From: Psammoneis japonica
Lineage: Eukaryota
DNA length: 64,000 bases
Direction of reading: 5' to 3'
Assembly: GCA_008632985.1 (NCBI GenBank)
Contig: QPGO01000150.1
Coordinates: 62,001-126,000 of the forward strand
Position numbers and translations under genes: made by a program. Numbering within the stretch: the first letter of the stretch is position 1; each line of letters opens with the position of its first letter. Shown here piece by piece: positions 21,271 through 64,000 of the stretch. The notes below the pieces were generated by a model. That model was not told the DNA's origin, did no database searches, and saw nothing but the letters and a program-made list of their open reading frames with translations.

Positions 21271-21981
21271 TTTTTTCCCTTTTCCTTTAAACCGGCCACG
21301 AATATGAAAAAATTGCCGCAAAAACCTTTTCCCATCCTAGAGAAAGCGCAGATTCGGATTTTTTCTGCGCGCAGGCAACGCGAACGAACAATCGAGTGGA
21401 TTTCGCGTTGGTTTGGATACACATTTAAGGACCGGCTAAATGCGCAGTGCGCATTTTTGAGTTTTTGGGTCTCATTTTGCACTAAATGCGCAAAAATGCG
21501 CTACTGCGTAGAAACATACCAGGATTCTACGTGGCGTCACACCTAAACGTTGCAACGCACTCGTGATGAGCTTGCAACTGCAACAGAAGTAATTAGCCCT
21601 CTCTAGAGAGACAAGAAGTGACAGTCATATCATAAAACTCACTGTTACATACATTTACAGCTATCACCTACTCAAGCAAGTGATAGTGCTTGCTGTTCAG
21701 TCGTTCAAACATGCAGATCTCAAGAATGTCGCGTGGGATCTCAGTCACGGTTGGCCGAAGCTTAGCGGCAGCGCGCAGACAGTGCGCGCAGGGTTGGAGG
21801 GAGGCTGTGACGTCATCTATCAGTACTGTATCTACGCAGAATACACGTAGCCAGTTTCAGCGCATAAATGAGCGCAAAACCGGGTTTCGACGAGCGCATT
21901 TAGCCGGTGCTTATACACATTCGAGCAGAGAAAAAACGAGTGCCGTTCCACTCTTGGCGCTTATACGTTCATACAATCACG

Positions 21982-34724: not shown

Positions 34725-35029
34725 GATTTTGGTCTTGTAGTGTATGGGCTTTGAATCGAGACGACGTCGTGGTTTGCTTGTTGATTGCAACAACAACAAC
34801 AAAATAACCTTTCTGAAAAATGAGAAAAAAATTCGTGGTTGCTGGCTGTTACTTGTCGGTTTTGTCATTTTGACTGACTAAAATGTTCTCAAAGGTGTCC
34901 GATCACACTGAAATGCGTCGTTGTTATGCGTGGCTGCGTTTGGGAAAATCGAAAACCTCGCAAACACTAACTGTGCTGTTGTAGCTGGACGTAGAGCAGG
35001 TCAGTTTCACTCTCCACAGTCTATCTGGC

Positions 35030-35598
35030 AGAGTAATGTCATGTAAAACAGCCAAAGCACCAAGTCATCAAAATGGGGGTGGCACAGCAGACAGCTGCGT
35101 GCGCACCGCACCTCCTTTGCGAGCACAGCATGATTTTGACAACAAGTCCAGCCAGTGGCAGCCAGTTTGGAAAAACTTTGGCCTTGTGCTTGTGCACATC
35201 AACAGTGCAACTCAATGAAAGAGAGAGCACATTGTCTTGTGCATGTGCATCACACACCACATCAGTGTGCTGTGCAAAAAAAAATCTGTTTTCGAAAGAT
35301 GGCGCTGTGCACAGCAAGTGCAAACTGGGAGTGCGCATGCACAACTGTCAGCCAAAGAGCCAAACCTGGACATGCTGCTGTGTGTTGCACTCTTTCTTTC
35401 TCTCTAGTTACCTCCACGCTGCTTGCCACTGTGCACCCAACAGGTTCAACCATTCCCACACATGCCAGCTTCCAGCCGTCACACATGCCGTGGCACACGA
35501 CATCTTGTGCGCTCAAACAGCAGCAAAGACCAAACATCTCTTACACTCTCCCCAACCAACCTCACTCACACACTCAACACTGAGCTTCTTTGCACCAT
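35030..35598 (-). pseudogene. Hypermutated duplicate of the SKP1 3' end and downstream region (source about 36990-37535)
   Basis: Shared anchors AGAGTAATGTCATGTAAAA, CTCTAGTTACC, TTCAACCATTCC and CAACACT[A/G]AGCTTCTT. Confidence 0.85.
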
Positions 35599-35699
35599 GG
35601 AAAAGACCCAGGTGTTGAAATTGCAGTTGCGCCCTGTTTGGTTGGCTCCAATGGACTCTGTCACATGGGTGGGGCAGAGTTCTGTGAGCAAGCGAGTCT

Positions 35700-36800
35700 G
35701 AAACGATTGACCAGTTCACTCCCCATGGGAGAACACCTGCTGGGACAAACTGTGTGACTCACAGGTCTCATTGGCCCAGAAACCCACCAAAGCAGATGTT
35801 TGACATGTCTGCGTGCTCCTCATTGATTTTTGATTCATGTCTCAACCAAGCCTTGGTGTGCAGAGTCATGAGCACATTGATCCATGGCGCCACCCCCTCT
35901 CAATGTCTTTTTCTTCAAATGTGTTCGGGTGTGGTGTTTTCCCTTTCTTGCTCAACAGCATTTGAGAAATTCAGTCAAGAGCTTGCAACCCCAGAGAAAT
36001 TCTTTCCAATTGAACATTTGAGGGAGATGAGCATCTGTGGGTTGTTTGCTGCCATGGGGAGCGCAGTTGTTTTTGACCTCAAGTTGAGGTCACACAGCGT
36101 GTTGGTGACCAGCTCATTCTGTGCAATGAAAGCCAAGTGAGCACCCTCATCCACAAAGGCCTTGCAAAGCACTCTGGCACAAACAAAATGTTCTTGACAT
36201 CGTTTGGCCTCTGGGTGAATTGTGTTTGTCAAGAAGGAGGGATTGAAGGAAGTTGCTTTTCTCATGCATTTGGCATCAGTGCCTGCATGAGAGCCCGAGC
36301 CCAACCAATCAACCCTGAAGTGCAGAGAGCAGGCTTTTCATGTGTGCAAAATGGTCATCATTTTGGGCAACACTGCCTGTCATGAGACCATGTGGAACAT
36401 TTGGCAGTTTCAGAAGGATCTGCATGAGGTGTTTTGCAGCAGCGGTCTTTCCCGTGGACGATGGAGTCCAGAAAACATGCGAGCAGCGAGAGGAAGCGCG
36501 CCCCCCAGCAAATTCCACAAAGAGCTTGAAATTGTGCTGAAGACCCAACAGGAGAGTCGTCCTTTTCACTGTTGCCTCTTTGAGGAATTTCTCATGCAAA
36601 CTGCTTCATGACGCAACAGTTCCTCCAAGAGTGCCAGCATCAGCCTCATGCAGAGAACAAGCTGCTGTGCAGTGTGAGATTGTGCCCAGGGGGTCTCTTC
36701 CAAGCCAGCAGGCATGGTGTTTTTTCCCAACAGTGAAAAACATACAAGGGCAGCAAGTGCAACAGTGCAACGTGCAACAATTTGTTGATGTGATTGCTGT
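35700..36800 (-). pseudogene. Decayed P-loop NTPase-like ORF in island 3
   Basis: Walker A-like HVFWTPSSTGKT. Fragmented reading frames with no Tyr. Confidence 0.45.
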
Positions 36801-37517
36801 TGCATTGTTGTGACGACTCTTTGTTGGGACGACTGCTCTCTGGGGACGTGTCTGGCAGCAGCTGCTGTTTGATAAATTCTGTCCGTCTGTGCGTCCGAGT
36901 GCCCTTCGACGTACAGTAGAGAGAGTACAGAGTAGGTTTGCTACTCTCTACTCTAGCTCGAACATGGAAGTAGTTTGCTAGCTCTAGAGTAGAGTAATGT
37001 CATGTAAAAGCGCCATAGCAACTCGTCAAGACGGATAGTATGGCAGTATAGTCAGTGACGTGCACACTTCCAATAAGATAGATTTCTGCGCTCCCTTTTT
37101 GGAAACAAGCACAAACAAATGAGCCTTTGGTGCTTGCGCATCAACAACTGTAGCAACCCCACAAAAGAGAGATAGCGCATTATCTTGCGGTATGCATCCA
37201 TAGCCAGCAGCGCACTATATAAAAGGAATACAATAGACTCTAGTACCGTAAGATGGGGTATTGTACACATACAAGCTAGATTGTACACAAGTAGGTAGTC
37301 GAACCAAAACTGGATCTACTAGTATATATTGTATTCTTTCTTTCTCTAGTTACCCTCCATGCTACTCGCCACCATATACTCCAATACTTTCAACCATTCC
37401 AACACGCCTACAAACCGTCGCATATACTGAAGCACACGTCTTGTGTGCGCGCAATAAAAAGCAGCAGAGACCAACTTCTTTCGTATCTTCCCCCCAAACT
37501 CACTCTCACACGCAACA

Positions 37518-38347
37518 CTAAGCTTCTTCACACCACTTGTTTTCTTCACGAACTTGAGCTTCCTCTTCGGGAGAAAAGTCATTGGCAATGTTAAAGGTCG
37601 TACGAATTTCTTCAGGAGTCTTGCCCTTGATCATGCTGGCCACCGTGGCACACGTCAAATCCAACAATGGCTTGATATCCATGTAATTGGCAGCCAAAAT
37701 GAGTTGAAACAAGACGGCTTGTTCAACATCCACAAAGTCGGCATACCACTTTTGAACGACATCCGCCATGACTTGAGACTTGAGGGTTTTTCAATTTCCG
37801 TCATTTGTTCCGTACGATAATGCTTGCAAAAGGCGATTACCTTTTCGAGAATGACAGACGTCACGTTGGGAAGAGGAATTTCCGTACTAGTGCGGTCCTC
37901 ATCCTCGTCATCGTCCTGTTCTTCTTCTGTATGGATAGAGAGAGGAGAGGAGAGGAGGAGAGTGAGTCAGTGCATGACTAAAGCAACACACGAATCAACA
38001 GAAACAACAACTACGCGGTACTGTACCCACCCTCCATCATGCCCTTGACGAGCTCCGACATTTTCGCAACATCCGGAGCAACCTCAAACTTGTCTCCCTC
38101 CTTGCTTACCTAATATGAATGTGAGTGGATATGGATAGGCAACAGAGCGCATATGTGTAAGAAGAAGATAATACTCTTGAGCGGCATTTTTTCGTCACGT
38201 AGAAATCTACGCAGTGTGTACCAGTGGTCCCGATCGATCGCGCCATGGATCCATACACCACTCAAACACACCGCCATCGTCCATACACATACACTCCAAT
38301 CATATAATAACACTTACGAGGTTCACGGTAGTCTCTTCCACATTCAT
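37518..38347 (-). CDS. SKP1: SKP1 (SCF ubiquitin ligase subunit), 3 exons
   Basis: [85 protein letters not shown]. One C is missing in a C-run near 37785 (EKPLKS). Confidence 0.97.
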
Positions 38348-38828: not shown

Positions 38829-39195
38829 TGCACTGTGCTCGAAGAACGAGTGCAAACGAAAGTAGAACGAAGTTCGAAAAGTGAAAATTATGAGATTAAA
38901 TTTTGCTCTGTGATTTTTGGTTTCTCCGAATGAGTTCTCAATGGCCTAAAGCTTCTGTGCTGCTTCTGCAGACAAAAGGCCTTTCGGAGAATGCATTCGT
39001 GACAACAGATTGTCCGGATGCGATTGCCATTGACACGCAAGATGTCAACATCGTCAATCGATCGTATTTGCAATTCTCGACATCCAATCAACTCTGTGTG
39101 ATCGTTCTGTCCTTTGCACGCATCCACGACTGTGGTGCGATTGACACACAAACAACACACAATCACAAACATGCGCGCAACAGTCGCACACTGCA
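38829..39195 (-). repeat. 3' LTR of the gypsy element
   Basis: Ungapped direct repeat of 43187-43553, adjacent to the PPT. Confidence 0.95.
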
Positions 39196-42100
39196 CTCGC
39201 CTCCCAATTGCACATTAGAGTCATTTGTTGAGTGGATTGTTCGACGGACATTGACAGTGTCAACAATGTCTCCACGTTCACTGCATTGTGCCATTGGCAA
39301 TGACTGTTGTTGTTGCAGGCAATGTGGGGCCGTTCCAATTTCCGAATGTCTTTTGAGAGTGACGTTGTTTGTTTCTCACTTAACATGCACACACACAGCA
39401 TTGCGTCGAGCATTCTCATTGACGTTCTTGTTGATGTGAACACAAGGACAATTGTCCTGGAGCAAGTGTTTTTCCTGACATCGATTGTGCACAGCATCGT
39501 GCCCAGCACTTAATGCACGCTCTCAATTGTGGCGTTCACTTGCTTGCTTGTGGATTTCATGCAGTTTGGCGGGCTTGCTTTACATGCCACATTGCTCTGC
39601 TGCACTGCCACGTTTCACAAGTGACAATGAACGATGGTCAAAGACATTGTGACCATTTCGTCTTGACAATCAATCCTGTGATGGTTGTGAATTCCATTGT
39701 GGATTTTTTTTTGCACTTCAACCATCTGTCAGTTGGATTTTAATCGTCATTTGGATGTTTCTTTCTGACATGCCGGTGTCATTTTGTCATTCCGAAGGCA
39801 CTGGTTTCGTGCACTAAGTGGAAAAATGTCCATTTTTCTTTTCTTTTCTTTTTCTAGATCTTTGGCACATCTCGTGTGTCTGCATGATGTGTGTTTTAAT
39901 GTCTTGCCTCGCACATTGTACAATGCAACCGCACGGGTGTTGTGAGATTGTCTTTTGCCAGTGTGAAGTGGACACGTGTGATGCACACCAATCTGTCACT
40001 GTTTTTTCCTAAATCGTCCTTTAAAAAGGCGATTTTGTCCTCATGACATGAGCATTTTTCGATCTCGCTCGCCTCCACGAAAAGTGTTCGCATGACATGT
40101 CGCGTCCGACAATTTGGAGGGAAATGTCTTCATCCCGTTTTAACGGCAGGACATTGTCGTAGGATTCAATTTTCTGTGGCAAGTCGGCTGATCGCGTCTG
40201 TCGTGACAATGTTCACCTTGCCCTCGTTGTGCTCTAATTTGGGACTGAAGTTGTCAACGTATGACTTTGTCCGTTGTGTCTTGTGATCCGTGCATGCACA
40301 AATCTGTTGGCCAAACAGCACATTTCGGAATTTTGTGGGTGTTTTCACTGTGGACAGAAGTTCTTTTTTCCGTTGTAACGCATGATGTTGAAATCCGTGC
40401 ATGATGACAATGCAGTTTTTGATTTGATGTGCTCCACATTTTTGGAGACTTTTCGTTCCGTACTTGCACTTTTGCCGTTGACCTTTGTTGAGGTGAATCT
40501 GGCCAGCATTGTGCAGGAGATCGTTGAGACCACATGTCTCGACAGCAGTGACGCATGACGACGAGATGTCGCAGTGTTCTTTGCGTTTTTCTCATGTTGC
40601 GATTGCTTGAATCGCCTCCATTTTCTTTGTAATCGAATGCATGTCGTTGCTCATGGAAGTCTTCATAGTTTGTTTCAAGTTAAACAGTGAAGGACTTTTG
40701 TTGTCAACCTTCTAAGTGACTGTTCCAGTCGTTTGAATGCCGCACTAAGCTGTCACTTGTGCAGGTGACATTTTGAAGTTACTTTTGTCAGGCACAAACG
40801 ATCACATGCAGTCGTTCTGACAACTTCAAACCTGTTGTGAGTTCACTCAAGTGTTGCACAAAAATGTCTGGGGCTCCACAGATTCTCGTTGGAAGTCCAC
40901 AGCACTCATTTTCTCCCCACGGCATGATTTTCGTGTGAGCACGACGTGTGCTTTTTTCATTTGACATGGTGGCATTCCATGTTTGAATCAAACAGATTGC
41001 ATGCATGAAACGTTCTTGCTTCAATGGCATTTCCTGAACATTGGGCAAAGGATGCACCACCTGTGTGAACCTTGTGCCAAGCTTCTGAGTGTCGGGTGCG
41101 GTCGAACTCGACCTGTTTTCTTTGGACAATGAGTCTCAGAGCGACTCATTCAGAGCAATTTCATTCTTGAGACTTCAATCTTTCACAACAGGTCAAACTC
41201 CTTTTGATTGGACACCTCCAAAGACTGTGATGGGAGAAGGTTCTCACGCGTCGTGGAATCACGTCAGATTTTCCACGATGAGATCCACTGATGCTTCCCA
41301 CACATTCGTCTGAGGAGCTTTTCAAAAAGATTTCAACCTCTTGAGAAGAAGATTGAGTTGGTTGTGTTCATTTGGGTCAGATGCATCGCCGCAGTTGTCA
41401 CTTGATTGGGGTCGATGGCATGACAATGTGAGTCGAGGACCATTGGTTCCGTCACCAACTCCATTCACGGCGTCATGTTTTTCAATGTGATCGGTTTTCA
41501 GCTTGAAAACATCGGCATCGAAGAGTGTGCGAACATTCTTCACAGGGCAATTGCTTCTTCCCATTTGATTTCTTCAATTGCGTGGTCCAACATGACATGA
41601 TTGCAAGACTGGACATTGAGTCGCGTCCCATGATCACATTGCTCGACCTTGAAGAAGATTTCGTGTCATCGACATGTGCTGTTTGAATGTCAGCACGTCT
41701 TAAATTTGCATGGTGAGAACTGAATTTGGTTTCTGCTGTCAGTCGTAAAGAGCTCACCCTTGGTTTCCCAAGTTTTTTGGTGGCGGATGTTTTGTGTTCT
41801 CGACTTTGCACGATTTTGAGTAAAATCATGGGCTGATGATGTTCTTTGTCGAGAGAACAGGCAGATGCTTTTTTCTCTCCTTTCCCAAGGAAGTGTTCGT
41901 GTAAATGATGACTCCTGGACTGGCGTGAATCATTTCTGCCTTTTTTCTGGGCTTCCCAATGTCCAGCAAAGCAAACAATTCGTGAATGGACCCAAATTGT
42001 TCTTCGGATTCACTCTGGATCATCCGATCACATTGGTGTTTTTCTTCACTGAGGGTGTCAGAATCTGATTTTTTGCCCTCATGCTCTTTTTCTTTGTTCG

Positions 42101-43186
42101 AGGAACTCGCTTTGAGCATTTTTTGAACCGCCTGATCAATCATGACGTTCAACTCTTTTTTGCGAGCGGCATTTTCGTTGTCGCGACGCGACCGCGTGCG
42201 ATTGCCATTTTAAACGGCGCATTTTTGGGTCTCTTTCAGAGTCACCCTTGCACTCTTTTGCCAGTTCATTTTCAGAATGGCTCCAATCCGTGATGTGGGC
42301 ATTCTTTTTTCAAAGATTGGACCTGGCATTCACTTTGGATTGTTCAGGTGCCGTGTGGGAGACCATTTTTGGAACCAAATTTGGAGCCATTTTGGTTTTG
42401 GAATCAATTCCACTGTCAGAGCCTGATTTGACATGGTTTGTTGTCACAGACATCATGAACGACTTCTAGACGACTCAAAACTCAATCAGCTCATCAAGGA
42501 TGAGTTCCAACAGTTGGTTGTTTTGGACAGCAGACTGAGGCTGCCATCCTTGCGGTGCGAGTGACAGCCAATGGCTCACGACTCGGTTTCCCGCTAGATT
42601 CAACTTAGAATCCATTGAAGGGTTGCATGGACGCTCTTCATTGACCTCTTGGGTCCAACAGAGGCTTTCTTGCTGTCAAGCAGCTCTGGTTTCTTCAGAT
42701 CGTTTCGAAAACAACAACTCCGATTCTGAAGTGCAGTTCCTGGAAAGACATGAGATGAGAGACTCTTGAGGTGCTTTCCAACGGTTCCTTCTTGCTCTTT
42801 GGATCGAGGCTCGTTGATTCGGTCTCTAAAAACTCTCCAATGGTCTCTCCTTGCAAAGTAGATGCATTTCTCGGATCTGATCGACTCGGGACTTGCATTC
42901 TCTGCAACCATGACTTGGTGTAGATTTTTTGACAATGCGGTGCACTTGTGGAGTCCTTGATCCTTGGATGCTTGGAATGGACCGCACTAGAACGAATCTT
43001 GTCATTTGCTAGACGAAAAACAGCGTTCCATCTTGAGGCACTGCTCGGATTGAGCTTCTTCCGCTCGGAAATCGATTCTGGCAGAACTGATGCGATTCGT
43101 CCCTGTTCACAGAAGAATTTGCAAAGGCACATTAGGTAAAATTTTCATTTTCCGTGCTTTTTACCTTCTGTGGTGTGTGTGCACAA

Positions 43187-43553
43187 TGCACTGTGCTCGA
43201 AGAACGAGTGTAAACGAAAGTAGAACGAAGTTCGAAAAGTGAAAATTATGAGATTAAATTTTGCTCTGTGATTTTTGGTTTCTCCGAACGAGTTCTCAAT
43301 GGCCTAAAGCTTCTGCACTGCTTCTACAGACAAAAGGCCTTTCGGAGAACATGTTCGTGACAACAGATTGTCCGGATGCGATTGCTGTTGACACGCAAGA
43401 TGTCAACATCGTCAATCGATCGTGTTTGCAATTCTCGACATCCGATCAACTCTGTGTGATCGTTCTGTCCTTTGTGTGCATCCACGACTGTGGTGCGATT
43501 GACGTGCAAACAACACACAATCATAAATGTGTGTGTAACAGTCGCATGCTGCA
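43187..43553 (-). repeat. 5' LTR of the gypsy element
   Basis: Ungapped direct repeat of 38829-39195. Confidence 0.95.
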
Positions 43554-44793
43554 GCACCCTCCAAAAGCAGTGCGCTCTTTGCTGGTCCACCAGACATGAC
43601 AATGATGCTGCTGCTTTTGTTCCTCTTTCCCTCACTCACCCCCAAGAGATTCTTGCTCATTGTTGCTGTTGTTGTTTCAACAAGAGCGCTCTCTGGCACC
43701 ACTTCATCCAAAGAGAGCAGCGCCCCCCTCTGTCCCCTGTTTTGTTGTGTGTGCGCTGGACCCACCCTCCCAGCAGCTGCAAATGTGTCGTGCAGTCAAG
43801 TGGTTGTTGTTTGCCACCATGAACATGTGCAAGACTTGCACCCATTCTTGAAATCCAGCGCCTTTCTGAACTCTGCTGTGCAAGCACAGCCAGCCACCAG
43901 GTTTCTTGCTGGTGCTGACACCACTCACAAAAGAGCTTCTTGTTCACTCGACCCCCTCTTCCTGTTCTTTGTCAAGGAGAAGATTTGTGCCAATGTCATG
44001 TCAAGAGCATTGCTGTGCACACATGGCCATTGTGCAAGGTGCTTCCAGCATGCTGTTCCAGCCTTGTTGTGGACAAACCCCAAACCAACAAAACTCTGCA
44101 GCACACTCAAGGCAAAAGGCTGTCTCTCTCCTCCTTTGAAGCCCAGGCTCTCTTTTCCATCATTTTGTTGCACACTTCTTGTCACAAAAACAACTCAAGA
44201 AGTGCAGAGAAGCAGATGATGGCTGCACCAAAAACGTCAGCACAACAAGAGTGCAGCGCCATTCCACCCTGCTGCACCAGCTCTGCCAAAATGCCAGCCA
44301 GCATTTTTCTAAATGAAGGTGCCTCCAGAATGATGCCAGAGGTTCTTGTTGCTTCCCCCAGCAACACTCCTCTGTGGCTCTGCCTCTCATCAGCACTCCA
44401 ACAATGCTTTGGCACTGCTCCAGTGTCCAGTGGCTCCTGGCAGGAAAGCAAGCTGCAAGCAACAAGATGGTTGAGCAGCTGGGTGATCACCCAGCATCGC
44501 CCCTCCTGGCACCCAGACTCAGTCAATGTGGGTGGAGCTAACAGCAAAAGTGAAAAGCAGGTTTGTGCCTCTCTTTGCTGAGCAGATGACAAAACAAGAT
44601 GGGCAAGGAATGCAGCATCATCAAAGAGGCTTTTGAAAAATGAGACACATGGCAGAGCAACAGCGGGAAAAAAGTTGAACAGAAGGACAAAAAAAGTGGC
44701 ATCTTGGCACTCGCATGAAGTCAAGAAAACAGTGATTCTTTGCTTTTTCAGCAAACAAGCCCTTTGGGGGGGGGGGGGGCTCACCATGCTCAT

Positions 44794-44995
44794 GTGGAAG
44801 ATGAGAAATGTCCAGCCTGCCATTTGTGTGCTGATGCTGTTGCCACATGGTGTCCGTGCATGACGAAGGATTGTGCGGCGTGGTGGTGAACAGCACTGCG
44901 CTTGTGTGGAAGATGAGAAATGTCCAGCCTGCCATTTGTGTGCTGTTGCTGTTGCCACATGGTGTCCGTGCATGAAGGATTGTGTGACGTGGTGG
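44794..44995. repeat. About 112-bp tandem duplication
   Basis: GTGGAAGATGAGAAATGTCCAGCCTGCCATTTGTGTGCTG at 44794 and 44906. Confidence 0.9.
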
Positions 44996-45199
44996 CAAAC
45001 AGCACAAAGTGCACAGCAAAGTCATTGCAGGAGGTCCTGGCCCCCTCACAACTCTTGTGTGAGTCAATGCCAAAATCACAGCACATCTAAATGCACGAAC
45101 TCTGGTCTAAACCCAGATCTTGTGCAACAAACTGTTGCATTCCTGCAACTGATCTTGGTGCTGAGTCACACAGTCAGTCACTCAGTCAGCCACTCAGTC

Positions 45200-45750
45200 A
45201 ACAAATGCAGCAGAAACTTTGGCATGATCAAATTGTGCTCTTCTGCAGCCTGCTCTTTGATGCCCTGCCCTGCCAACCAACCTTGCAAGCAGTTGGCTCC
45301 AATGATGGCCACAACCCATGCAAACAATTTCTGTGACAACATTGGCACTCAGTGTCTTGACAAAAAGAGTGAGCCACTCTGCCGCTCTTTTTCTTGTTGG
45401 GTCTTGTCTTGCTCCAAAGCAACAACACTTTGTTGTCTTCCAACAAATTGCTTGTTGTCACTTGCATCAATGTCAGAAGTCAAACCATTCAAGATTGGCA
45501 CATGCTTGCAGCCCACATCCTGCAATGGCGGTCCTTGTTGGTGCTGTTTCGGAGCGGAGCTTTTGGCAGCTTGACGAAAGCCTCCGGCACTTGCCTTGGC
45601 AGCTGCTGTGGCATGCTGCTGCTTTTCATTGTCACTTCCTTCCGCTGCTGCTTCTCACTCCAATGGTGCCTCTTGGCTCACTTGTCCATGGCAATTTTGG
45701 AGAATGATTTGAGTTGATGCATGTGGCAGCTCTTGGTGCCTTTGAGCACT
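45200..45750 (-). pseudogene. Hypermutated duplicate of the 3' coding end of gene 47305-49015 (source about 47310-47835)
   Basis: Shared GAAACTTTGGCATGAT, TGCCAACCAACCTTGCAAG, TCAAACCATTCAAG and TTTTGGCAGCTTGACGAAAGCCT. Confidence 0.92.
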
Positions 45751-45910
45751 TCACATTTGCATGAGAAAGTCTCAAAGGTGTCATTTGTCCAGTTGAAAAA
45801 TGACTGTTTCAGGTCATTTTGGGGGTGTTCCAGGACCCGCGGGTCGACAAGCAAGAACACTCGACTTCGGCGGGTTCTCATTCGTCGGTGAACGGCATCT
45901 GTCGTGCACC

Positions 45911-46924
45911 ATGTCTTCGTCCCCCGAGCAACCGAGCAATGTCAACCAGTTCAATGTCAACGACCAAGGCAACGTCAACCAGATCAATGTCAGCGACCAA
46001 GGCAATGTCAACATGATCAAGGTCCAAATTTGCAAGTGCCAGTGGTTTTCAGACCAGCCGACTTGGGCGAAAGTCCTGGAAATGTCTTTGTTTGTTGTTG
46101 CGGCAACAGGCTCCACCGTTGCTGGTGTTGTCCTTGGCGGTGATGACAGCAACGGTGACGAATCGTTGCCATCCCCTGGCAAGTCTTCACCAACGCCACC
46201 GTCAATGACAGCAACTCCAAGTGTCTCACCGACGCCACGGAATGCAGAAGGACCACCGGTGCGTACACCGTCTTGGCATCCAACGCCGGTGCCTGCCCAT
46301 GCTCCTACATTGCCAATGCCCACGCCGTCTCCGACGCGTTGGCCCACCCGCTCACCAACGGCGCCGCCAACATCGCAGACACCAACCCCAGCACCCACGT
46401 CTTTGCCTGCTGTTGCCATTCCACCAGCAAACACATTTGTAGTCGGACCGGCACTGCCCAGTGCCAGAACTTTTCCCTTTGCCTTTGGTGGGGGCAATGT
46501 AGGTGCAACCGTTGGTAACGATTGGAAAACAAGTGAATTTCCCGGTGCGCCATCTGGTGTCACCAATGCACCCTTGCTGTTTTCGGGGTCATTCGAGAAC
46601 GGGAATTGGGTCGCCGGGGGGCTCGGATCATGCAGCAAAGACGGATGTTACGGTGCTTTGACCAAGCCATTTGAAATCGTCCATGCCAATGGTCTCACCA
46701 CTGCTCGCATCATTGGGATTGCCTTTGGTGACGACTCTGATAATGATGACTTTGCACTTTTGGCGGCACAAGGACAATCGCTGTTTACGGCTCCGTTGAC
46801 CATCCCACCCTTCTCCACGCAGGTCACTTTTCTCACTGGTTCATATGAAAATATGATACCTGGCACCCATCTATTGGATGAAGAGCTGTCCGGCTTTTCC
46901 CTCGAAGTGAGGCCAGCATTGTAA
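45911..46924 (+). CDS. Single-pass membrane protein with Pro/Thr stalk, partly TpA-depleted
   Basis: Open frame with NVN..NV.DQG repeats, a TM segment, a PT stalk and a globular C-terminus. Confidence 0.6.
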   Translation: MSSSPEQPSNVNQFNVNDQGNVNQINVSDQGNVNMIKVQICKCQWFSDQPTWAKVLEMSLFVVAATGSTVAGVVLGGDDSNGDESLPSPGKSSPTPPSMTATPSVSPTPRNAEGPPVRTPSWHPTPVPAHAPTLPMPTPSPTRWPTRSPTAPPTSQTPTPAPTSLPAVAIPPANTFVVGPALPSARTFPFAFGGGNVGATVGNDWKTSEFPGAPSGVTNAPLLFSGSFENGNWVAGGLGSCSKDGCYGALTKPFEIVHANGLTTARIIGIAFGDDSDNDDFALLAAQGQSLFTAPLTIPPFSTQVTFLTGSYENMIPGTHLLDEELSGFSLEVRPAL

Positions 46925-47304
46925 AAAATGGAAGTAAGCTAGAGCACTTCCCGATACAATAGTGTGTCACATATGCTTTTTCTGTTCTCCTATATACCAG
47001 TTGTGTTGTTTAAGGCGACCATTGGTGCACCAAAAGATTGCCGCGATCCTGAAAGGGAAACCGATACTCCCACTAACAGCAAGAAAAAAACCCTAGGAAT
47101 CCACCGAGGCATGACTGTTGGGCTGACTGTCACGACCAAGCCACTTTTGACTGGAAATGAGATGATCCCGGCAGGACTCTGACAAACTAGCAATGAAACT
47201 CTTTAGACTCTCTAGACACGAGATTGCACGTCGCAAGACTATCGTAGTAGACACTAGCTCGCAATCATAACCATCTCAATAAGCTCTCTCTCTCTCTCTC
47301 TATT

Positions 47305-49015
47305 TCAATACAATGGAAACTTTGGCATGATTAAATCTCGTTCTTCTGCCGCTTTCTTGATACCCTGCCATGCCAACCAACCTTGCAAGTAGTTGATTCC
47401 CATGACCAAGACCCGCGCCGACAATTTCTGTAACCACCTTGGTACTCGGTGTCTCGACAAGAAGAATAAACCACCACCGTCTCTTTTCTTGTTGCTGAGT
47501 TTCGTCTTGTTCCAAAAGGAACGCTTCATCCTCCTCTAACGAATTGCTTGTCGCTTGCATCATGTCGGAAATCAAACCATTCAAGGTTGACACGTACTCG
47601 TAATCGGCATCCCGTAAGGGTTGTCCTTGTCGACACTGTTCCGGAATGGCATTTTTGGCAGCTTGACGAAAGCCTTCAACACTCGCCTTGGCGGCGGCTG
47701 TGGCATGCTCCTGCTGCTGCTGCTTCTTTTCGTTGGTTCCTTCTTGTTCCAACAAGGCCTCTTCGTATACTTGTCCGTAATAATTACGGAGTGATTCGAG
47801 TTGATCCATGTATAGCGTTCGTGCCTTTTCAGCAATACTCAAGAGAATGGAATGAACGTTGCTACTACTACCGCTTTCCTCTTCCAATAAGCACTGACGT
47901 GCGTTTTCCAAAATGGCCGTGATTGTCTCACCAAAGTGTTCAAGAGGCGGTCTTGTTGTTGCTTCATCATCACTTTCTTCTGCAACATGTAGCCAAATTG
48001 CTTCTTGTTGTTGTTTTAATTCGTCCAGTTTCATCCATGCGCGTGACAATACCTCGTCTACTCGATTGATTTGTGGTGGTTTTTGTTGATTAGATTCATC
48101 CTTGTCATTTTCTTCTGCGGTAGTCGACACGGCAATCGGTGGTGGTTCTTCTTGTGCAGCTTGCTCTTGTCGTACTATCGAATCGGAAGTGTCCTCTGAC
48201 GTTGTTTCTGTTTTATCTAAAGAGGGGTCCATCGTGGCGTCTTGCTCTTGAGCAGTTTCATCTCGTTCCACTTGCGATTCTTCTTGTTCCAACTCTAATG
48301 AAAACTGACACGTCAATCCGTTGGAGAGTGATGCATAAATTTCACGCAGTAACTTTGGAAACGCCTCCAATTCAACCACAGGAGATTCATTCTCGGTATT
48401 TTGAATCTCCAAAAGAACTTCTTTTACCAATTCTTGATACTCCTTTATGGAGGATACAATTTCAAGTCTTGATACAAGTTCGGGCGTCCAGTGCTGAAAA
48501 TCATGCTGGACGACATGATTCATGGCATCGTCTATGTACTCTTGATTGTTTTTCATCAAGACGGCAACTAGTTTTGGTTTGCCCAAGCCACCCGCAGTGA
48601 CACGTCGTTGAATACCTCGTAGGAGGGGTTGTAATTGCTGTTGCGAGTCGTCGTCGTTGTATGATATGAGCAACACGTCACAAAGCATACCCATGGTTTC
48701 CAGTACAGCATCTCGATTACTTCCAACAAACTTGTCACTAATAATGGTCGATGAATCATCCAAAGGAACAATGGCAACGACAGTCGTTCCGTCTACCATG
48801 TCAATGCTTCCAATGGAAACATACTTTTTTTCTTTTTCTTGAAGAGTACTTCGAGTAGTTGTTTCGCCTCCATGAGGGACGACTCCCCAAAATCGTGACA
48901 GACTTGGTCGTTTCGCTGTAGCGTCAACAAGTGATGTATGCAAGCATAATGTGATGAAAAAGAAAAGGACGAGAACAACCGTGGATGCAAGAAACAAGTT
49001 GTTGTTTGACATCAT
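47305..49015 (-). CDS. Uncharacterised protein with signal peptide, acidic middle and C-terminal GINYLQGWLAWQ...MPKFPLY
   Basis: Long ORF with an apparent 2-nt frameshift near 47480. The decayed duplicate at 45200-45750 keeps the continuous frame across that site. Confidence 0.7.
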
Positions 49016-49907
49016 GGTCGTGTCGTCATGATGGTGCAAAAATTTTGTGAGGTCGCAAACGATAAAACCGCGCGAATGAAGATCGCGCATTCTCGATCTT
49101 TTGACACGCGTCATTATGACATCACAATCAGAACTCAAATTGAATGATGTATCTATGAATAAATATTAAAGATTATTCATTCGGCACGTGCAACAAACAG
49201 GCATTGTTTCGCCAACATAACAAGAAGCAAACAAGCCGCCGAGAGTGAGTGTGTTTGCTTGTGTTGGCATTGTTGATTAGCGCCAAGTGATTGCAAGCGT
49301 AGCACACACAAGAGAGAAAGAGAGACGAGTTATTGAATTTTGTATTCGCTTTTGATCAGGGTGTCTCTGCATCACTGTCAAGGCAAAAAAAAGACACAAA
49401 ACATCAAAAAATCATTCCGAGCGTATCTCTACGTAGAACTTGTACTGATTTCTACACAAACCAAGACAGACAGAGGTGAGTGGAATGCTTTTCGTAGCCC
49501 TACACATGGTGAACATCACACCGATCAATGCACAACGTCCGTGTAAGAAGATGTATGGTACTATTGTTTCTCTTGTGTTTTATTGCTTTGGCGCTCTGTC
49601 ATTTGCCGTTCCATACATTCACTATGATGATGTCGACAATAACAACATGCCGACGAACTCAGCTTGGCGTGAATCGCATTGGCGGCAAATCAGAAATTCC
49701 CTCTTTTCGATGCATTATATGTTTTCATACAATTGTTACAGGAACTAGGAATTTCGTGTCTTTTGTGTTTCTTGTCACGGACTCAATCAAGTCCCGTTTC
49801 GTTTCGCTCACGATTTGCGTGATGTTTTTGTTCTGACACGACGTTGTTTGATCTCAGGCAGACTTTTACCACTCGTAAACGCGTACTCTTTCTGACACAC
49901 ATAAATC

Positions 49908-56618: not shown

Positions 56619-57312
56619 TTTATGCTATGCTCGTTGCGTGTTATCTGCTTGGTATATGATTTCACTTGTGTCTCGATTGACTACGTTATAGATCGTACTG
56701 GTCCCTTACTATTACGGATGCAACACAACGTTGCTGCGACGACGACTTGAGACTGGACGCCATGGAGTGTACGGTGTGCGGTATGCAGTATCCATGCGTA
56801 CCGGTATCCGCGAAATTCATTCATATCATGTTGGAGAACAATAACGCGGCCTGTACGTCGTCGCGCGCACGCGCGAATGGACCGGCAAAAGCGAGCAAGC
56901 AGCTGCCTGGCTGGACCCGACCTCCCAAGCCGGGAGTGGGCTGGACCGAAAAACTCGGTCCATTTTCGTCGCGCGCACGCGCAAATAAGGGTGGTGCAAC
57001 ATGCAGCTACTGACAAGAGTTAATGTATCACGGCGACGTGTTACAGCCTTTAAATGTCACAAAGGGCGTGACAAAAATAACCTTTTGTCTGCATGCATGC
57101 TGCAGTGGGTCGGTTGCCACTTTTTTTAGCTCGAATTCGGCCGAACAGCTCGTGTTTTGCATGATTTTTCCTGAATTTCACCGTGCTTCACCGTGGTGAA
57201 AACAACAAGCCACAAGTCTGTGATGGAGGTGGTCCGTCTGCCAACTCTCATTCATTTTGTGTTTGTTGTGTGTCAAAGATTGCGCACACACATGAAAAGT
57301 TGGCAGGTGCTC

Positions 57313-57570
57313 TCCAGCTCCAGGTGGGACCTCGCACTGCTGCACTGTGACATCAACAGTTTTTTGGATTGCGATGCGTTCCAGCTCTGGGTGGGACCTT
57401 GCACTGCTGCACTGTGACATCAACAGTTTTTTGGATTGCGATGCATTCCAGCTCTGGGTGGGACCTTGCACTGCTGCACTGTGACATCAACAGTTTTTTG
57501 GATTGCGATGCGCCCCAGCTCTGGGTGGGACTTCGCACTGCTGCACTGCGGCATCAACAGTTTTTTGGAT
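57313..57570. repeat. 67-bp tandem repeat, 4 copies, with dispersed copies near 57700, 59340 and 63700 (inverted)
   Basis: Unit TCCAGCTCTGGGTGGGACCTTGCACTGCTGCACTGTGACATCAACAGTTTTTTGGAT... starts at 57313, 57380, 57447 and 57514. Confidence 0.95.
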
Positions 57571-59866
57571 CGCGTTGCATGTCGCGCACGCACATTTCTG
57601 CGTGTTGCATTCTACGAAATTGTTTCATGCTCCCTGTTTTGCGAAGCCAAAGGCTTTCTATTTTCAACATTTGTGAGAATGAAAGACGCGTTCCAGGTCC
57701 AGGTGGGGGACCTTGTGCTGCTGAACTGTGACATCGACAGTTTTTTGAATCGCGTCGCATGTCGCGCGCGCACATTTCTGTGTGATTTTGGCAAAATTTT
57801 GCATGATTTCACAGTGCAATTGTCAGGCCATCCATTGAACAACTTTTAACATTTTTTTCTTCTGCGCCATTCTTGAGTGTCTTGAGAATGGCACAGGGCA
57901 GGCTTGTCATCCAAAACCCCAAGTGCCAACAGGGGCAGATGTGCTGCAAACTTGGCCGTTTTTTTCGTGTCGAAGACAAATGCATCCATCAACCAGAGTG
58001 TGAACTGCAGAGCTTGCACGCAGAATTCTGCTGGGCAAATGTCACAAAAAGTCCCACCTGGGGCTGGAACCCATCAAAAATGCGCTGGGTGTGTTCTTTG
58101 ATGTCTGAAGAATGCACCCGGGCAAACTGTCAATGATGTGCTCCAAGCATGAAGGAGGAGATGCGTTCGTAAAATTGCCTCTCTTTCTGTTGGCAATCAT
58201 TTGCATTTTCATTGCAGCACAAATTTGCTGTGGAGCTCACACGCAGAATTCTGTGGGCCCAATGTCACACGAAGTCCCACCCAGGACTGGAACCCATCAA
58301 CAGCATGTGCACTTTGCCGCGCACTTTCTTCATCTCACCATTGCAGCATTGGCGTGAAGCAGCACAAGCAGCAGGCCGTGGTGGAGCTGTTCTGCATCAA
58401 TGCATTTCTAGCCAGAGAGGGGATGGAGAGAAAAGGGTGGGCCGAGGGTGCGGACAGATGGTTGAGAGGAAGAATCAGTGACAGTGGGGTGGCAAAGGAG
58501 ACGAGCTTGATGAGACTGAGAATTTGAGAGGCCCAGAGTGGAGGGGTTGAAGCATGATGGGAGGAGCCAAAAGAGTCATTTCCAGGGCACATTGGAGTGG
58601 GCGAGGAGGTCAGAAGGTGCCAAGAGTGAGCTGGCAAAGGCAGGGAAAGATGCTCAGGAGTTTGAAAAGGAGGATGGGCTTGTCCAGGATGGTTTGGGAG
58701 CAATGGGAATCATTCGGGTCCTGAGAGTCATCACGCAGAAATTGTGTGGGAGAGTGCCAAAAACAATTGTCATCAGTCTGTCCATCTGTCTGCATGCGAA
58801 CATCAACTTCTCGGGAAATCAATTGAAATGCTGTCTGATTGACGGCATTTTGATTCACATGGTGAAGGCCAATGCCATCAATCAGATGGCGTTTCAATTC
58901 AGTTCCTGAAAAGTCATTAGCTCCAATCACTCTCTCGTGCAACATTGTGCACATTTCCACACAATTTTGTGTTTTTCCTTGTGTGAAACATCAATTGTGA
59001 CCCACGCGACATTTTCGAATGATTCCTGTTGAAGGGGCAGGATGGAGGCAGATGTTGTGACAGAGGTGCCAAAGAAAATGCATGGAAATGACTGCCGATG
59101 CCGCCAAGGTTGTTGAATGTAAAAGGAAGGAGAAAGAGTCCTGCCTGCTTGGTTGACAGCATCGATGATGTCAGAGCCATTGGTGGATGATGCAGAGCGA
59201 CCAAGGAGCTTGCACCATGGATTCGTGATGTGATCATTTGTGTCAAACCCAGCACTGCTTGAATTGTGTCCAAACCAGCTCTTCCCTTGATGAGCATGAT
59301 TGGCTTCATGCAAAACTCCAAAAGAGCAACAGACGTGCTCCAGCTCTGGGTGGGACCTCGCACTGCTGCACTGTGACATCAACAGTTTTTTGGATCACGT
59401 CGCATGTCGCACACACACATTTCCATGTGTTGCATTCTCCAAAATTGTTTCATGCTCCCTGTTTTGCGAAGCCAAAGGCTTTCTATTTTCAACATTCATG
59501 AGAATGAAAATGTGCTGGGCATGTTCTTCAATGTCTGAAGAACACACCCGGGCAAACCACAAATGATGCACTCCAAGCATGCAGGAGGAGATGCGTTGGC
59601 TTTCTGTTTTTAACATTTGTGAGAATGAAAATGCACTGGGTGCATTCTTTGATGTCTGAAGAACATGCCTGGGCAAACTGTCAATGATGTGCTTCAAGCA
59701 TGCCGGAGGAGATCCGTTCATAAAACTGCCTCTTTTTCTGTTGGCAATCATTCACATTTTCATTGCAGCACAAATTTGCTGCGGAGCTCGCACGTGGAAT
59801 TCTGTGGGCCCAATGTCACACGGAGTCCCACCTGTGGCTGGAACCCTTTGGCAGATGGCAAACTGC

Positions 59867-62331
59867 TGCAGTGGGCATCCCTGCCGTGGCCGCCGATGAT
59901 GCCACTTTCCTGCATCTGCAGGCTGTCTGCAGCAACGCTGATCCTGCAGAAGCGCACACTGGATGACGCGACTCCTGATGTGAGACCTGCGATGGTCTGC
60001 GGGAGATCTGCTTGACTGAGACCGGCGTGACTGGCCATCGCACAAGTGACTCACCTTGCATGAAGGGTGTCTGCAGGATGTGCACAGTGCCAAGTGTGAC
60101 TGATTCCACAAAAGGACTCAAACTCCGCATGTCTCACTGTTGCACACGCACATGCTCCACGCAAAACAAGCTCACAATTTTCACAACACCAAAATCTCTA
60201 CGTCACAAGCACTCATTCCCCATTTCTGCATGGGCCACACCAATGTTGCTCCCTGCAAGTGCAAGAATGGTTTGCTTGAACAACAATGAAGGTCGGCCAC
60301 ATGGCATTTAGCACATTTGTGACACAGGCGGTCGTTCCACCAATTGCCTTTCAACGTCCGGTTGAGAGGGTTCTGAAAGAGAGCCAACATCAGACGCATG
60401 AACTGCACACAAATCCGAATGACCCGGATGGTCCCACGTGTTAACTTGCGGTTGCCCACTTCTCGGCGGAGTCACCTGAAGAATGGCTCCTTTTCTTAAA
60501 GGGCTGTGACCGCATTTGTGTTGGACAAAACATTGCGACAGGACCCGGAAAATTTTCACTTGTGAGAAGGCCGTTGGAGGGCAAAGCTCTCACAGCCTTT
60601 GACAATGCTGTGGCAAATGAGAGTGCAGAAACAGCGGCATCACTGGCACATTGCATTGCTGCCATTGCTGAAAGTGTCTTCCCAGAAAGGGCTGCATTGA
60701 CACAAAAACGCTGTTTGAAGCGTTTCACGCAAAAACCATTGAACATCAAAATGCACAATTGTGTTGCTTGTGCCATGGAAATGAACGCGCACATTCCAAA
60801 ATTTCCACCTGTGCAAGATGGTGGACCAGCACCACAAGCGCTGTCGGAAGACAATTTGGTTGATCTGTTTGAACAACGTGTTCCAGTCCCAGGTGATGCA
60901 CAAAACGACAATTGATTTTGAACACAATTTATGTGTCTTTTAGCGCATGTGGCATTTTCATGTAAAACACTTGGACGGATTGAATTTTGTGGGCTTTTAG
61001 AGCATGAACATTTAAATGGTTTTTTGAGGGGTGTTCAAGTCCTCATGGGACATGTGTCACAAAGTTCCTCAGCAGACTCAATGCTGATTGCATGTCAGCA
61101 GATTTATGCTGAGATTTCTTTGCAGGCAGAAAACCTGCCAAGTGGCCTTGTAGAAAGACATGTTTTGGTGACATCCAAATGACAGCAACATTTTCGCCAA
61201 AAATCATCCGTTGTGTTGCAAATCTCTCAACGCAATGAAAAACACAGATGGCACAATGACAATGACATTGCAACACTCACACGAGTCTTGTCATTGTTGC
61301 AAAACATCTGCATTTGTGCGAATCTATGCTTTTGGTGGTGAAAGTTCAATCGCAAGCCAGGGACCGCGCAAAAATCGCGCAAATGTCGTTTTTGTGCACG
61401 ATTTGGTTCACGTGCGGCTGGAACACGTCAAACATGGCATTCCACGACCATGGCAGCACCAGATGAAGTTGCAAGGATTCAATCCCTTGGCGCACACCAT
61501 TCCAGAATTTGTCTCATTCTGTGAGCATGTTGAAGAAGTTGAGGCTGCTGACAAGCTCACAGCCTCTGCCTCACCTGAAGACGACCCTGAAGACATCCCT
61601 GAAGACAACCCTGAAGATGACCCTGAAGACGCAGAGGTGGTGGACGATCTGACTCCACATCAACGACCAAGTCGTGAGAGTCGTGCGCCAAGCAAGTTGA
61701 CATCGGTGGCAAAGAAGCGAGCTTCGATGATGTCAGATGCTGCGTGCAACAGGAAGTGCATGCTCCGCTGCATGACATCAGCTCAGAAAACGATTGACGC
61801 ACGCCCAAGTGGCGAAATGTCTGCTGAAATGGCAACAATGACAATGACATCCTTTGTGTGTGAGAAGGCATGTGTGCTGGTTTTTTGGACACACCAAAAA
61901 ATGTCCTTTTCCAGCAGTGGGACCCTTCTGTCACTCACACAACCTTGTCACAGGGGCGAGTGCAGCAGGCATCCCTTCCGTGGCCACCAATGATGCCACT
62001 TTCCTGCATCTGCAGGCTGTCCGCAGCAACGCTGATCCCGCAGAAGCGCACACCAGATGACGCAACTCCCGACGCGAGACCTGTGATGGTCCACAGGAGA
62101 TCCATGTGGCTGAGACCGGCGTGACTGGCCATCGCGCAAGTGACTCACCTTGTGTGAAGGGCATCCGCAGGATGCATGCAGTGCCAAGTGTGACTGATTC
62201 CTCGAAAGGACTCAAACTCCGCATGTCTTGCTGTCGCACATGCACATGCTCCACACAAAATAAGCTCACAATTTTCACAACACCGAAACCTCTACGTCAT
62301 GAGCACTTGTTCCCTGTTTCTGCATGGGTCA
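59867..62331 (+). mobile_element. Short gag-only non-autonomous LTR retroelement
   Basis: 371-bp LTRs at 59867-60237 and 61961-62331, TSD CTGC, PPT AGGGGCGAG. Gag-like VFPERAALTQKR...KP...FPP...GIPRPWQ..QGFNP..EFVSFCE. No pol remnant seen. Confidence 0.9.
60876..61428. mobile_element. 553-bp MITE-like insertion in gag
   Basis: TIR ACGTGTTCCAG...CTGGAACACGT plus a subterminal inverted TGCACAAAACGACA match. Flanks are TGAACA and CAAACA. Removing it rejoins DLFE-HGIP. Confidence 0.85.
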
Positions 62332-64000
62332 CTGCGTTTTTGAGAAATGCCAATGACTGTCATCATCATCATGCTTCGATTGCGGTGCTGATGGTTCTCG
62401 TTTTCGTGCGCGATCAGGTGTGACCATGAACAATTCTTGCATTCAAAAACAAGCACTGCGAAAAACCTTGTTCAAATGCAACGGCAATTTCAGGACAAAC
62501 GTGGGGATGCCCCCCCACAATGGACCAAAAAGGGACAGGGCATGGACCGAAAAATTTTGGTTCATTTTTGTAACATCCATGCGTCGACCGCAGTGGCACG
62601 ACTCATGAACTCCTCAAACCAACAGACCACAATGATGATGCGATGTTGTGTTTTGTGCAACCAATGCCACAAGCAGAGCTGATGTCAATGAACAAGTGCA
62701 ACATTGGTGACAAGCTTCATCATGATGGGAAGCACAAACAACAAGAGCTGCAAAGAACTTGTGACACAAACACAGCTCACATTTGACTTGAAAGGTTGCA
62801 CCAGTCTTCTCGTCACTCGTGTCACACCAACACATCTTGCCTTGTGCTCCTGCACATCATGAGCTGCTGGCTGCAATGAGTGCTGGGAGGAGTGTGTCTG
62901 CTGCAGACGTGTTCCAGATGCAGGCGGGAATCCATGTGACATTGGGCCCACAGAATTCTGTGTGTGAGCTCTGCAGCAAAATTGTCAGGCAATGCATGTG
63001 TCAATGATCGCCAACAGAAAATGAGGCAATTTTGCGAAAGCACAAACTCGTCCATGATTGAAGCACATCATTTTTCACTTGTCCAGGTGCGCTCAGGGTT
63101 TTGCAAAACATTGAGTCTGGAACATTTTTTTGGAAGATCACATGCAGAAATGCACGTGCGAAACATGTGACGAGTGACAAAAAATGTTCATGTCACATGT
63201 CATTGCTGCGAGCTCCCACCCAGGGCTGGAATGCATTGATGTAGAACAGCTCCACCACAGCCTGCTGCTTGTGCTGCTTCATGCCAATGCTGCAATTGTG
63301 AGATGAAGAAAGTGTGCGGCAAAGTGCATGCGCTGTTGACGGGTTCCAGTCCTGGGTGGGACTCCGCGTGACATTGGGCCTGCAGAATTCTGCGTGCGAG
63401 CTCCGCAGCAAATTTGTGCTGCAATGAAAACACAAATGATCACCAACAGAAAAAGAGGCAATTTTATGAACGCATCTCCTCCTGCATGCTTGGAGTGCAT
63501 CATTTGTGGTTTGCCCGGGTGTGTTCTTCAGACATTGAAGAACATGCCCAGCGCATTTTCATTCTCATGAATGTTGAAAATGGAAAGCCTTTGGCTTCGC
63601 AAAACAGGGAGCATGAAACAATTTCGGAGAATGCAACACATGGAAATGTGTGTGTGTGACATGCGATGTGATCCAAAAAACTGTTGATGTCACAGTGCAG
63701 CAGTGCGAGGTCCCACCCAGAGCTGGAGCGCGTCTGTTGCTCTTTTGGAGTTTTGCATGAAGCCAATCATGCTCATCAAGGGAAGAGCTGGTTTGGACAC
63801 AATTCAAACAGTGCTGGGTTTGACACAAATGATCACATCACGAATCCATGGTGCAAGCTCCTCGGTCGCTCTGCATCATCCACCAATGGCTCTGACATCA
63901 TCGATGCTGTCAACCAAGCAGGCAGGACTCTTTCTCCTTCCTTTTACATTCAACAACCTTGGCGGCATCGGCAGTCATTTCCATGCATTTTTCTTTGGCA

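Follow-up and report, generated by a model that had tools for sequence, protein, structure and literature searches.

A TA-erased copy of a SEY1/RHD3-like gene end in the diatom Psammoneis japonica and the regional loss of TpA around it

In ascomycetes, repeat-induced point mutation (RIP) changes C to T, mostly CpA to TpA; it creates TA, needs homology and hits both copies. Pack-type transposons capture gene fragments. In mutation-accumulation lines of the rhizarian alga Bigelowiella natans, a preprint by Mettrop et al. describes TpA hypermutation of integrated viral DNA, with TpA changed to TpG or CpA on both strands (bioRxiv 10.64898/2026.01.13.699255). According to the preprint, de novo mutations and partial TpA depletion (Rho 0.45) affect regions of 186 and 25 kb, 124 clusters occur genome-wide, the nucleocytoplasmic large DNA virus (NCLDV) region that is hit is single-copy, and domains related to transposable elements are found among the TpA-depleted genes; an ADAT2-like DNA adenosine deaminase is proposed there as a hypothesis. 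The locus considered here is from the diatom Psammoneis japonica (GCA_008632985.1; 91.4 Mb in 597 contigs) and lies in a stretch of 64,000 nucleotides, referred to as the window (positions 62001-126000 of contig QPGO01000150.1, hereafter C151 of genome G000), where a dead copy of the end of a gene resembling SEY1/RHD3 lies about 2.1 kb from its live source and contains no TA dinucleotide. Positions are those of the window unless a contig is named. The locus is probably explained in two parts, an ordinary local duplication and then silencing-guided hypermutation of TpA to TpG or CpA.

The dead copy (45204-45755, minus strand) repeats, in direct orientation, the final ~180 codons of the live gene (47305-49114, minus strand; open reading frame [ORF] of 604 aa), has an in-frame stop and small indels, and aligns with 47307-47842 in a local alignment within the window. 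Self-BLAST matches 45213-45724 to 47316-47811 with 73.5% identity over 514 columns (E 7e-79). A transition-tolerant alignment, in which the fates of TA and CG given below were counted, has 394 identical positions among 520 ungapped columns and a score of 950 against a shuffle maximum of 97. The duplication of 47310-47835 at 45200-45750 reported in the original prediction is therefore real, and the five pairs of short words quoted for it all occur where it placed them, at offsets of 2092-2103. Genome searches with the live query and with the dead query, counted among the best-scored candidates, give 2 matches each, at the same two places, which rules out a paralogue elsewhere as the origin of the dead copy. 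Four of five homologous proteins match the live tail at 64-72% and the fifth at 49% over a longer stretch, while the same five match the dead copy at 31-38%, with its in-frame stop. Because the homologues fit the live tail far better, the direction of change is fixed, and the earlier assumption that the coding source is the ancestral state agrees with them. These comparisons support derivation of the dead copy from the neighbouring SEY1/RHD3-like gene.

The copies have 0 (dead) and 19 (live) TA and 7 and 30 CG, respectively, which bears out the TpA asymmetry that had been expected between them; at the observed/expected ratio (O/E) of the live copy, 0.52, the chance of finding no TA in the dead copy is ~2e-8. 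Of the 17 aligned live TA, 9 are CA and 6 are TG in the dead copy, 2 have another fate and none is kept, while 20 of the 29 aligned live CG are TG or CA and 3 are kept. Transitions affect 47% of live-copy bases in TA steps versus 17% of other A/T (Fisher p 2e-4) and 37% of bases in CG steps versus 12% of other G/C (p 6e-5). A control pair, 51095/52314, in which neither copy lies in erased DNA, keeps 27 of 48 TA. The same TA/CG to TG/CA signature is carried, as had been claimed, by a second dead copy in the window, that of the SKP1 3' flank (35028-35597, minus strand; source 36989-37535), in which 30 of 41 aligned TA have become TG or CA and 4 are kept. An assembly or base-calling artefact from modified bases is hardly credible as the cause. 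The assembly does have many 1-2 base indels relative to read contigs, and the sequencing run behind these contigs may be the assembly's own sample. Against this, the read contig over the dead copy (44916-46068) differs by 1 letter in 1153, has no gap and is at single-copy depth, that over 43488-44779 also differs by 1 letter with no gap, each site has one fixed state, and the dead copy has the indels and transversions typical of an old pseudogene.

The loss of TA is not confined to the dead copy. To the left lies a long terminal repeat (LTR) element (38829-43553) with TG...CA ends and a GCAC target duplication, and it is the most TA-erased of 19 aligned copies of its family. The erased domain to its right (43537-46263) has 4 TA in 2.7 kb, includes a TA-free run (45109-46263), and has a sharp right edge inside an ORF that occupies the spacer between the dead copy and the live gene. 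Within this domain, 43554-44752 has 2 TA versus 74 expected and 12 CG versus 74 expected; it resembles neither the spacer gene nor the rest of the live gene and is without a usable match in Pfam, Atlas or its own genome. It is labelled single-copy, as are the other stretches so named below, with the limit that similarity searches may miss heavily eroded copies. The spacer gene (45911-46924, plus strand) is a single-copy ORF of 337 aa with a hydrophobic stretch, a Pro/Thr-rich linker and a C-terminal part, and it is likewise without a usable Pfam, Atlas or own-genome match; its first in-frame ATG is at 45800, within a repeat remnant. The 5' half of this ORF and the sequence upstream (45756-46263) have no TA where base composition predicts 28 (at genic O/E, P is 2e-5 to 2e-7), while the rest of the ORF after 46263 has 13 versus 34 expected. 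CG is 7 versus 33 expected in the dead copy and 31 versus 35 in the spacer 5' half; CG kept in the latter and gone from the former suggests that the spacer was erased in a younger episode. The original prediction placed an unrelated ORF between the copies, and that ORF is present and single-copy, but its 5' half is TA-free too. Similarly, its proposal that the spare copy was erased stands for the dead copy itself, but single-copy DNA on both sides is erased as well, so erasure of a silent domain is the better description. The spacer of the SKP1 pair (35598-36880) is also TA-erased DNA that is single-copy in an own-genome search, without a usable match in Pfam, Atlas or its own genome. The SKP1 3' flank is non-coding and is spared in the live copy, so that live copies would survive by lying outside the silent domain and not only through codon selection.

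Two observations concern these spacers. The open part of the spacer gene at 45911-46263 is apparently a single-copy, host-like gene caught at the edge of an erasure tract. A part of the SKP1 spacer, 36056-36419, has weak inverted similarity to 43764-44133 (96 versus a shuffle maximum of 80), perhaps the remains of one family.

Bins of 500 bp were compared across 684 kb from four contigs (all 184 kb of C151, 200 kb each of C5 and C30, and 100 kb of C60), which is 0.75% of the genome and in which C151 was not a random choice. TA O/E is below 0.2 in 554 of the 1367 bins, and its distribution is bimodal with a clear trough between the modes (1168 bins). The LTR family was taken from a search with 25 matches (24 of 525 candidates scored), of which 20 loci were used; L035 was left out, leaving the 19 aligned copies. 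Their TA counts range from 52 (the copy in the window) to 315, while CG is 207-226. At 204 sites with both TG and CA in at least 2 copies, the third state is TA at 199, CG at 2 and tied at 3. Pairwise difference among the copies is 33% at TA-site columns and 2.6% elsewhere. TG and CA occur about equally often and alternate along the copies (switch fraction 0.481, and 0.501 when permuted), and strand-processive runs as in APOBEC or RIP were rejected, the LTR copies having only a slight excess. Since the copies agree at just 60% of jointly converted sites (153 pairs), most changes appear to be independent and later than insertion.

Conversion in this family occurs in copy-specific tracts of ~1.5-3 kb, on either strand. 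Bins of 400 columns are bimodal, with 49 of 228 less than 20% converted and 148 of 228 at least 50% converted. The tracts are central in L021, L022, L026, L028 and L038, while L023, L025, L029, L030 and L032 have tracts at both ends and a spared middle (~columns 1200-2000). In L021 the flanks are TA-erased, the ends spared and the centre converted, so tracts do not simply spread inward from the flanks. CpG loss is 122 of 2213 (5.5%) in converted bins versus 8 of 906 (0.9%) in unconverted bins, about six-fold, and other A:T>G:C transitions are at 1.25% versus 0.20%. Retention of TA depends on context, with 0.79 of TTAA and 0.73 of TTAG kept and 0.28 of ATAC and 0.32 of ATAT. Together these comparisons show conversion to be region-limited, near-saturating, present on both strands, independent of copy number and coupled with CpG loss, and the differences from copy to copy suggest that erasure came in episodes. 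One copy, L039 (G000:C177:80211-84928), is nearly unconverted, with 315 TA and one small converted patch, and is a natural control for the state before conversion.

The closest likeness to this pattern is with B. natans, as far as the accessible part of the preprint describes it. Changes from TpA to TpG or CpA predominate here (15 of 17 aligned TA; 199 of 204 polarised LTR sites), they are regional and far above background (bimodal TA O/E; 33% versus 2.6%), and single-copy DNA is hit (43554-44752, 45756-46263 and the SKP1 spacer, with the limit on eroded copies given above). As to the origin of the targets, an LTR element, short repeats and also host-gene pieces are hit here. The systems differ in that the present host is a diatom with ~40% of the sampled DNA at O/E <0.2, in which retroelements and dead host-gene pieces are affected, and in that each copy here has near-saturated tracts of 1.5-3 kb with coupled CpG loss, known from sequence comparison only. 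No published report of the signature in diatoms was found in a literature search that left most subscription journals outside its reach.

Decay of CpG by deamination of 5-methylcytosine in silenced DNA accounts for the CG to TG/CA half of the signature; it cannot remove TA, and young LTR copies lose TA while CG barely shifts. RIP is similar in that dinucleotide-specific transitions wreck repeats in episodes and leak into neighbours. Here, unlike in RIP, TA disappears and is not gained, one of the two copies escapes, and single-copy DNA is affected as well. A process like RIP in reverse, in which duplicates are recognised by pairing and then mutated, would fit with repeats as the main victims and with episodic, tract-like conversion. 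It is nevertheless very improbable, given that just one partner is hit, even in the non-coding SKP1 3' flank, that single-copy DNA is hit, and that no long same-strand runs are seen; furthermore, more similar intact duplicates on C151 keep TA in both copies, for example one of 3.7 kb at 89.7% identity (119 and 117 TA).

In the second part of the account that we prefer, the spare copy would have lain in a silent, repeat-rich domain, where a host process would turn the A:T of TpA into G:C (TA to TG or CA) in episodes of ~1.5-3 kb that approach saturation inside the tract and favour neither strand. CpG would also be lost more quickly in these tracts, as it should be if their DNA is methylated. 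What is targeted would be the silenced region and not the duplicated state, and the guide may be silent chromatin with CG methylation; in diatoms, CG methylation of transposons depends on DNMT5 (PMC9998398). The likely outcome is that transposons are inactivated irreversibly and that genes nearby suffer as bystanders. As to chemistry, we lean slightly towards a TadA/ADAT-type enzyme that is directed by silent chromatin and deaminates adenine in DNA. The genome has nine matches to the dCMP/cytidine-deaminase fold, by eye the usual enzymes, including two TadA/ADAT2-like ORFs, and these ORFs and two A_deamin loci could be candidate enzymes.

The same targeting could also act through another chemistry, in which the TpA thymine is modified, for example oxidised, and pairs wrongly with G, or in which the miscoding comes from a repair or bypass polymerase, a minor possibility in our estimation. 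A change of T to C on one strand is a change of A to G on the other, as such a chemistry needs. However, 5-hydroxymethyluracil (5hmU) is weakly miscoding, and the genome has no Tet_JBP match, in a search that had no positive control and so shows nothing. A precedent in its favour comes from dinoflagellates, in which TET/JBP makes 5hmU on transposons as a silencing mark (PMC11572971).

Two sets of loci are of note among the deaminase-like sequences. L124 (C40) and L126 (C79) are separate A_deamin (ADAR/ADAT1-type) loci, one of which could exceed a tRNA-enzyme role. L105/L108 (C41) and L106/L111 (C317) are two tandem dCMP-deaminase-like domains on each of two contigs, labelled by eye.

For the first part of the account, the SEY1-like tail would have been copied long ago by a local direct duplication, in the simplest case a tandem one with a period of ~2.1 kb, and repeat insertions and a later deletion at microhomology would have shortened the extra unit to 550 bp. 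On its left the dead copy adjoins a short dispersed repeat (44753-45200, plus strand) that contains an internal tandem duplication as well as a (CAGT/CACT)n tract, has 13 other matches on 8 other contigs and is truncated at this edge. Five aligned copies of this repeat run past the microsatellite into sequence that is absent from the locus; that sequence is similar to the start of the dead copy, and the left edge may thus be a later deletion at a short microhomology. Because the edge cuts a dispersed repeat mid-way, the size of 550 bp is probably secondary and need not be original. At the right edge, the junction of the dead copy and the spacer gene, is an ~80-bp end fragment of a low-copy repeat (45752-45833, plus strand). 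This repeat has 5 pattern matches in the genome versus 0 for a reversed control, its similarity ends at the same place in 4 other loci, and it scores 92-138 versus a null maximum of 70 in 132 stretches. A tandem origin is supported by other tandem pairs on C151, both intact and one-sided, of which the pair at 134962/139135 keeps a duplicated piece of spacer.

The fragments at both edges, the right one being an element end, would also fit a transposon-driven origin, either by reversed-ends transposition or by capture of the gene tail by an internally deleted element in gap repair, with the same decay afterwards. Reversed-ends transposition of Ac/hAT elements in maize is described as producing tandem direct duplications, 116-1262 bp long, whose junctions carry element ends (PMC3744419), and the locus resembles these cases in its short direct duplicates and in the element end at its junction. 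Unlike the maize cases as described there, no paired element ends or target-site duplication were found at this locus: a matching opposite end is lacking near the locus on the contig (the best other score, 78, is distant), the two flanking fragments do not occur together in any other locus compared, and the SKP1 junction has no such end fragment (scores 42-49). We therefore regard this origin as rather unlikely, and prefer ordinary duplication.

Another explanation, on which the original prediction rested, is a dedicated recurring event that inserts 1.4-1.6 kb beside a gene end, duplicates a target of ~550 bp and is followed by selective erasure of the spare copy. The SKP1 layout was cited as its parallel. 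At 552 and 570 bp, with periods of 2.10 and 1.96 kb, the two neighbouring cases are alike in size and spacing, but the likeness fails for content: the SKP1 dead copy is almost all 3' flank (~530 bp, next to 18 bp of coding sequence), and the SEY1-like dead copy lacks 3' flank and has ~540 bp of coding sequence. A survey of the 684 kb for duplicates spaced at up to 6-8 kb finds five one-sided host-like pairs on the 184-kb C151 and 0 in 500 kb of C5, C30 and C60, so that within this sample such pairs occur on C151 only. The five are SKP1, SEY1-like, 149448/150456, 134962/139135 and the partly eroded 142789/145075 (contig coordinates), with periods from 1.0 to 4.15 kb. The pair at C151:149448-151121 (L012-L013) is a dead copy of a promoter and gene start, 620 bp long, which lies 1.0 kb upstream of the intact gene with a spacer of 390 bp; this gene presumably resembles DUF2235. 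The pair at 134962/139135 is a tandem unit of at least 2.3 kb with a period of ~4.15 kb, in which 420 bp of spacer is also duplicated (score 264 versus a shuffle maximum of 89). C151 also carries intact tandem pairs. The one-sided pairs of C5 and C60 were rejected as host-like cases on account of their ends, which show an LTR pair and copies of a miniature inverted-repeat transposable element (MITE). C30 has one 255-bp pair with 96% identity, 5.7 kb apart and with 8 of 20 TA converted on one side, which was not inspected.

A dedicated event would draw some support from the third C151 case, with its 620-bp copy and 390-bp spacer, and from the absence of a second-spacer remnant in all three cases (alignment versus shuffles). 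It is improbable all the same. The gene anatomy varies (coding tail, 3' flank, 5' end) along with the periods, the three other contigs have no host-like case, the spacers share no sequence save for one weak score (96 versus 80), the left edge of the dead copy is a cut repeat, and erasure spans single-copy DNA. No empty-site allele, which had been suggested as a check, is present among the 15 read-contig joints shown, from contigs that drop rare variants. With unrelated, single-copy spacers and varying lengths and periods, neither a shared inserted element nor a fixed duplication length is found. The claim of a recurring, stereotyped insertion with duplication was thus not borne out; a special 550-bp duplication event is not supported, and the duplicate is better described as an ordinary decayed gene fragment of uncertain origin.

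Two further repeats in the surveyed contigs have differing TA states. C151:129367-133370 (L010-L011) is a young three-unit tandem repeat, 96-99% identical, of which the middle unit alone is TA-depleted. C60:31965-35014 (L115) has three nearby MITE copies of 390-450 bp with terminal inverted repeats and differing states of TA erasure.

Several observations weigh against ordinary duplication followed by silencing-guided adenine hypermutation. The first spacer copy that is expected to the left of the dead copy was not found (72 versus a shuffle maximum of 71; 53 versus 58), a second-spacer remnant was also not found for SKP1 or 149448, and no remnant of the rest of the live gene near the dead copy scores above shuffles. 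A tandem model needs an extra deletion because the second spacer copy is missing, and for SKP1, in which the PRORP upstream region abuts the dead copy, insertion fits equally. The microhomology at the left junction is short and was judged by eye in an alignment of 7 sequences. Transitions outside TA and CG steps are also raised in the dead/live pair (the 17% and 12% given above), so either the process is not strictly limited to TpA or the duplicate is old. Strand clustering in the LTR copies is weak, with at least 1 of 300 permutations reaching the observed value (minimum 0.478). As to chemistry, a lesion on A and a lesion on T give the same sequence, because TpA is self-complementary, and the deaminase genes look like an ordinary set, save for the two A_deamin loci.

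The dead/live pair is a polarised before-and-after control for a process that reverses the usual GC>AT bias and that apparently covers ~40% of the genome, while the layout stressed earlier adds little. If the process is enzymatic and silencing-guided, the locus extends an observation from a single 2026 preprint to diatoms at a far larger scale and would offer a workable system in which a natural editor of DNA adenine could be sought. A broader reading, offered as a tentative one on which we stop somewhat short of an even judgement, is that diatoms and a distant rhizarian alga share an adenine-editing defence of DNA, guided by silent CG-methylated chromatin and acting in single episodes of 1.5-3 kb, which would have rewritten ~40% of the genome and would leak into live neighbours such as the spacer gene. 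If this is true, RIP would have a second counterpart, working in the opposite direction, across the stramenopile-alveolate-rhizarian (SAR) lineage. Repeat ages, LTR dating and open frames would be distorted in TA-erased genomes, open frames because loss of TA removes TAA and TAG stops.

The live gene belongs to a diatom family resembling SEY1/RHD3 (three-helix bundle). Its protein has Atlas feature scores of 0.89 and 0.86 to Sey1_3HB and SEY1 clusters, which are under the 0.9 mark and are leads only; in the 0.89 cluster PF20428 is present in 14% of members and Bacillariophyta are commonest. Neither the 604-aa frame nor 3 homologues have a Pfam match. A homologous-protein search with the whole 604-aa frame gives nothing, and a 297-aa part has 102 relatives at E<=0.001 (HMMER library). 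The conserved C-terminal tail of the five homologues is encoded in a second frame from 47448 down, and a frameshift in the assembly lies just before it, near 47450-47475 (minus strand). This frameshift is likely an assembly indel error: read contigs of both runs show gaps near it, at positions that are not shown, and an X2 contig has 2 extra letters over the 1835 bases spanned, which would restore the frame, with a (CT)n tract in the same span. Synteny and TA erasure in relatives were compared at 8 metagenome loci of 1.6-6.7 kb, which match the contig convincingly at the gene only and have a lowest TA O/E bin of 0.31; they are too short and gene-centred to inform on either. X2 leaves 44012-46931 uncovered, from which silence does not follow; it skips a SKP1 intron and is thus RNA-like, though listed as DNA.

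Elsewhere in the window, at 37784, X2 has an extra A in the SKP1 coding sequence at high depth, likely an assembly indel. An isolated TA-free island of 1.84 kb (19448-21288) lies between ordinary genes, is nearly CG-free and has a spurious-looking ORF of 333 aa. Repeat copies at C151:58627-59011 (L008) and 163747-164148 (L014) are TA-rich (27 and 28 TA), while the copies at 57300-63800 of the window have 0-1 TA, and these are further before-and-after pairs.

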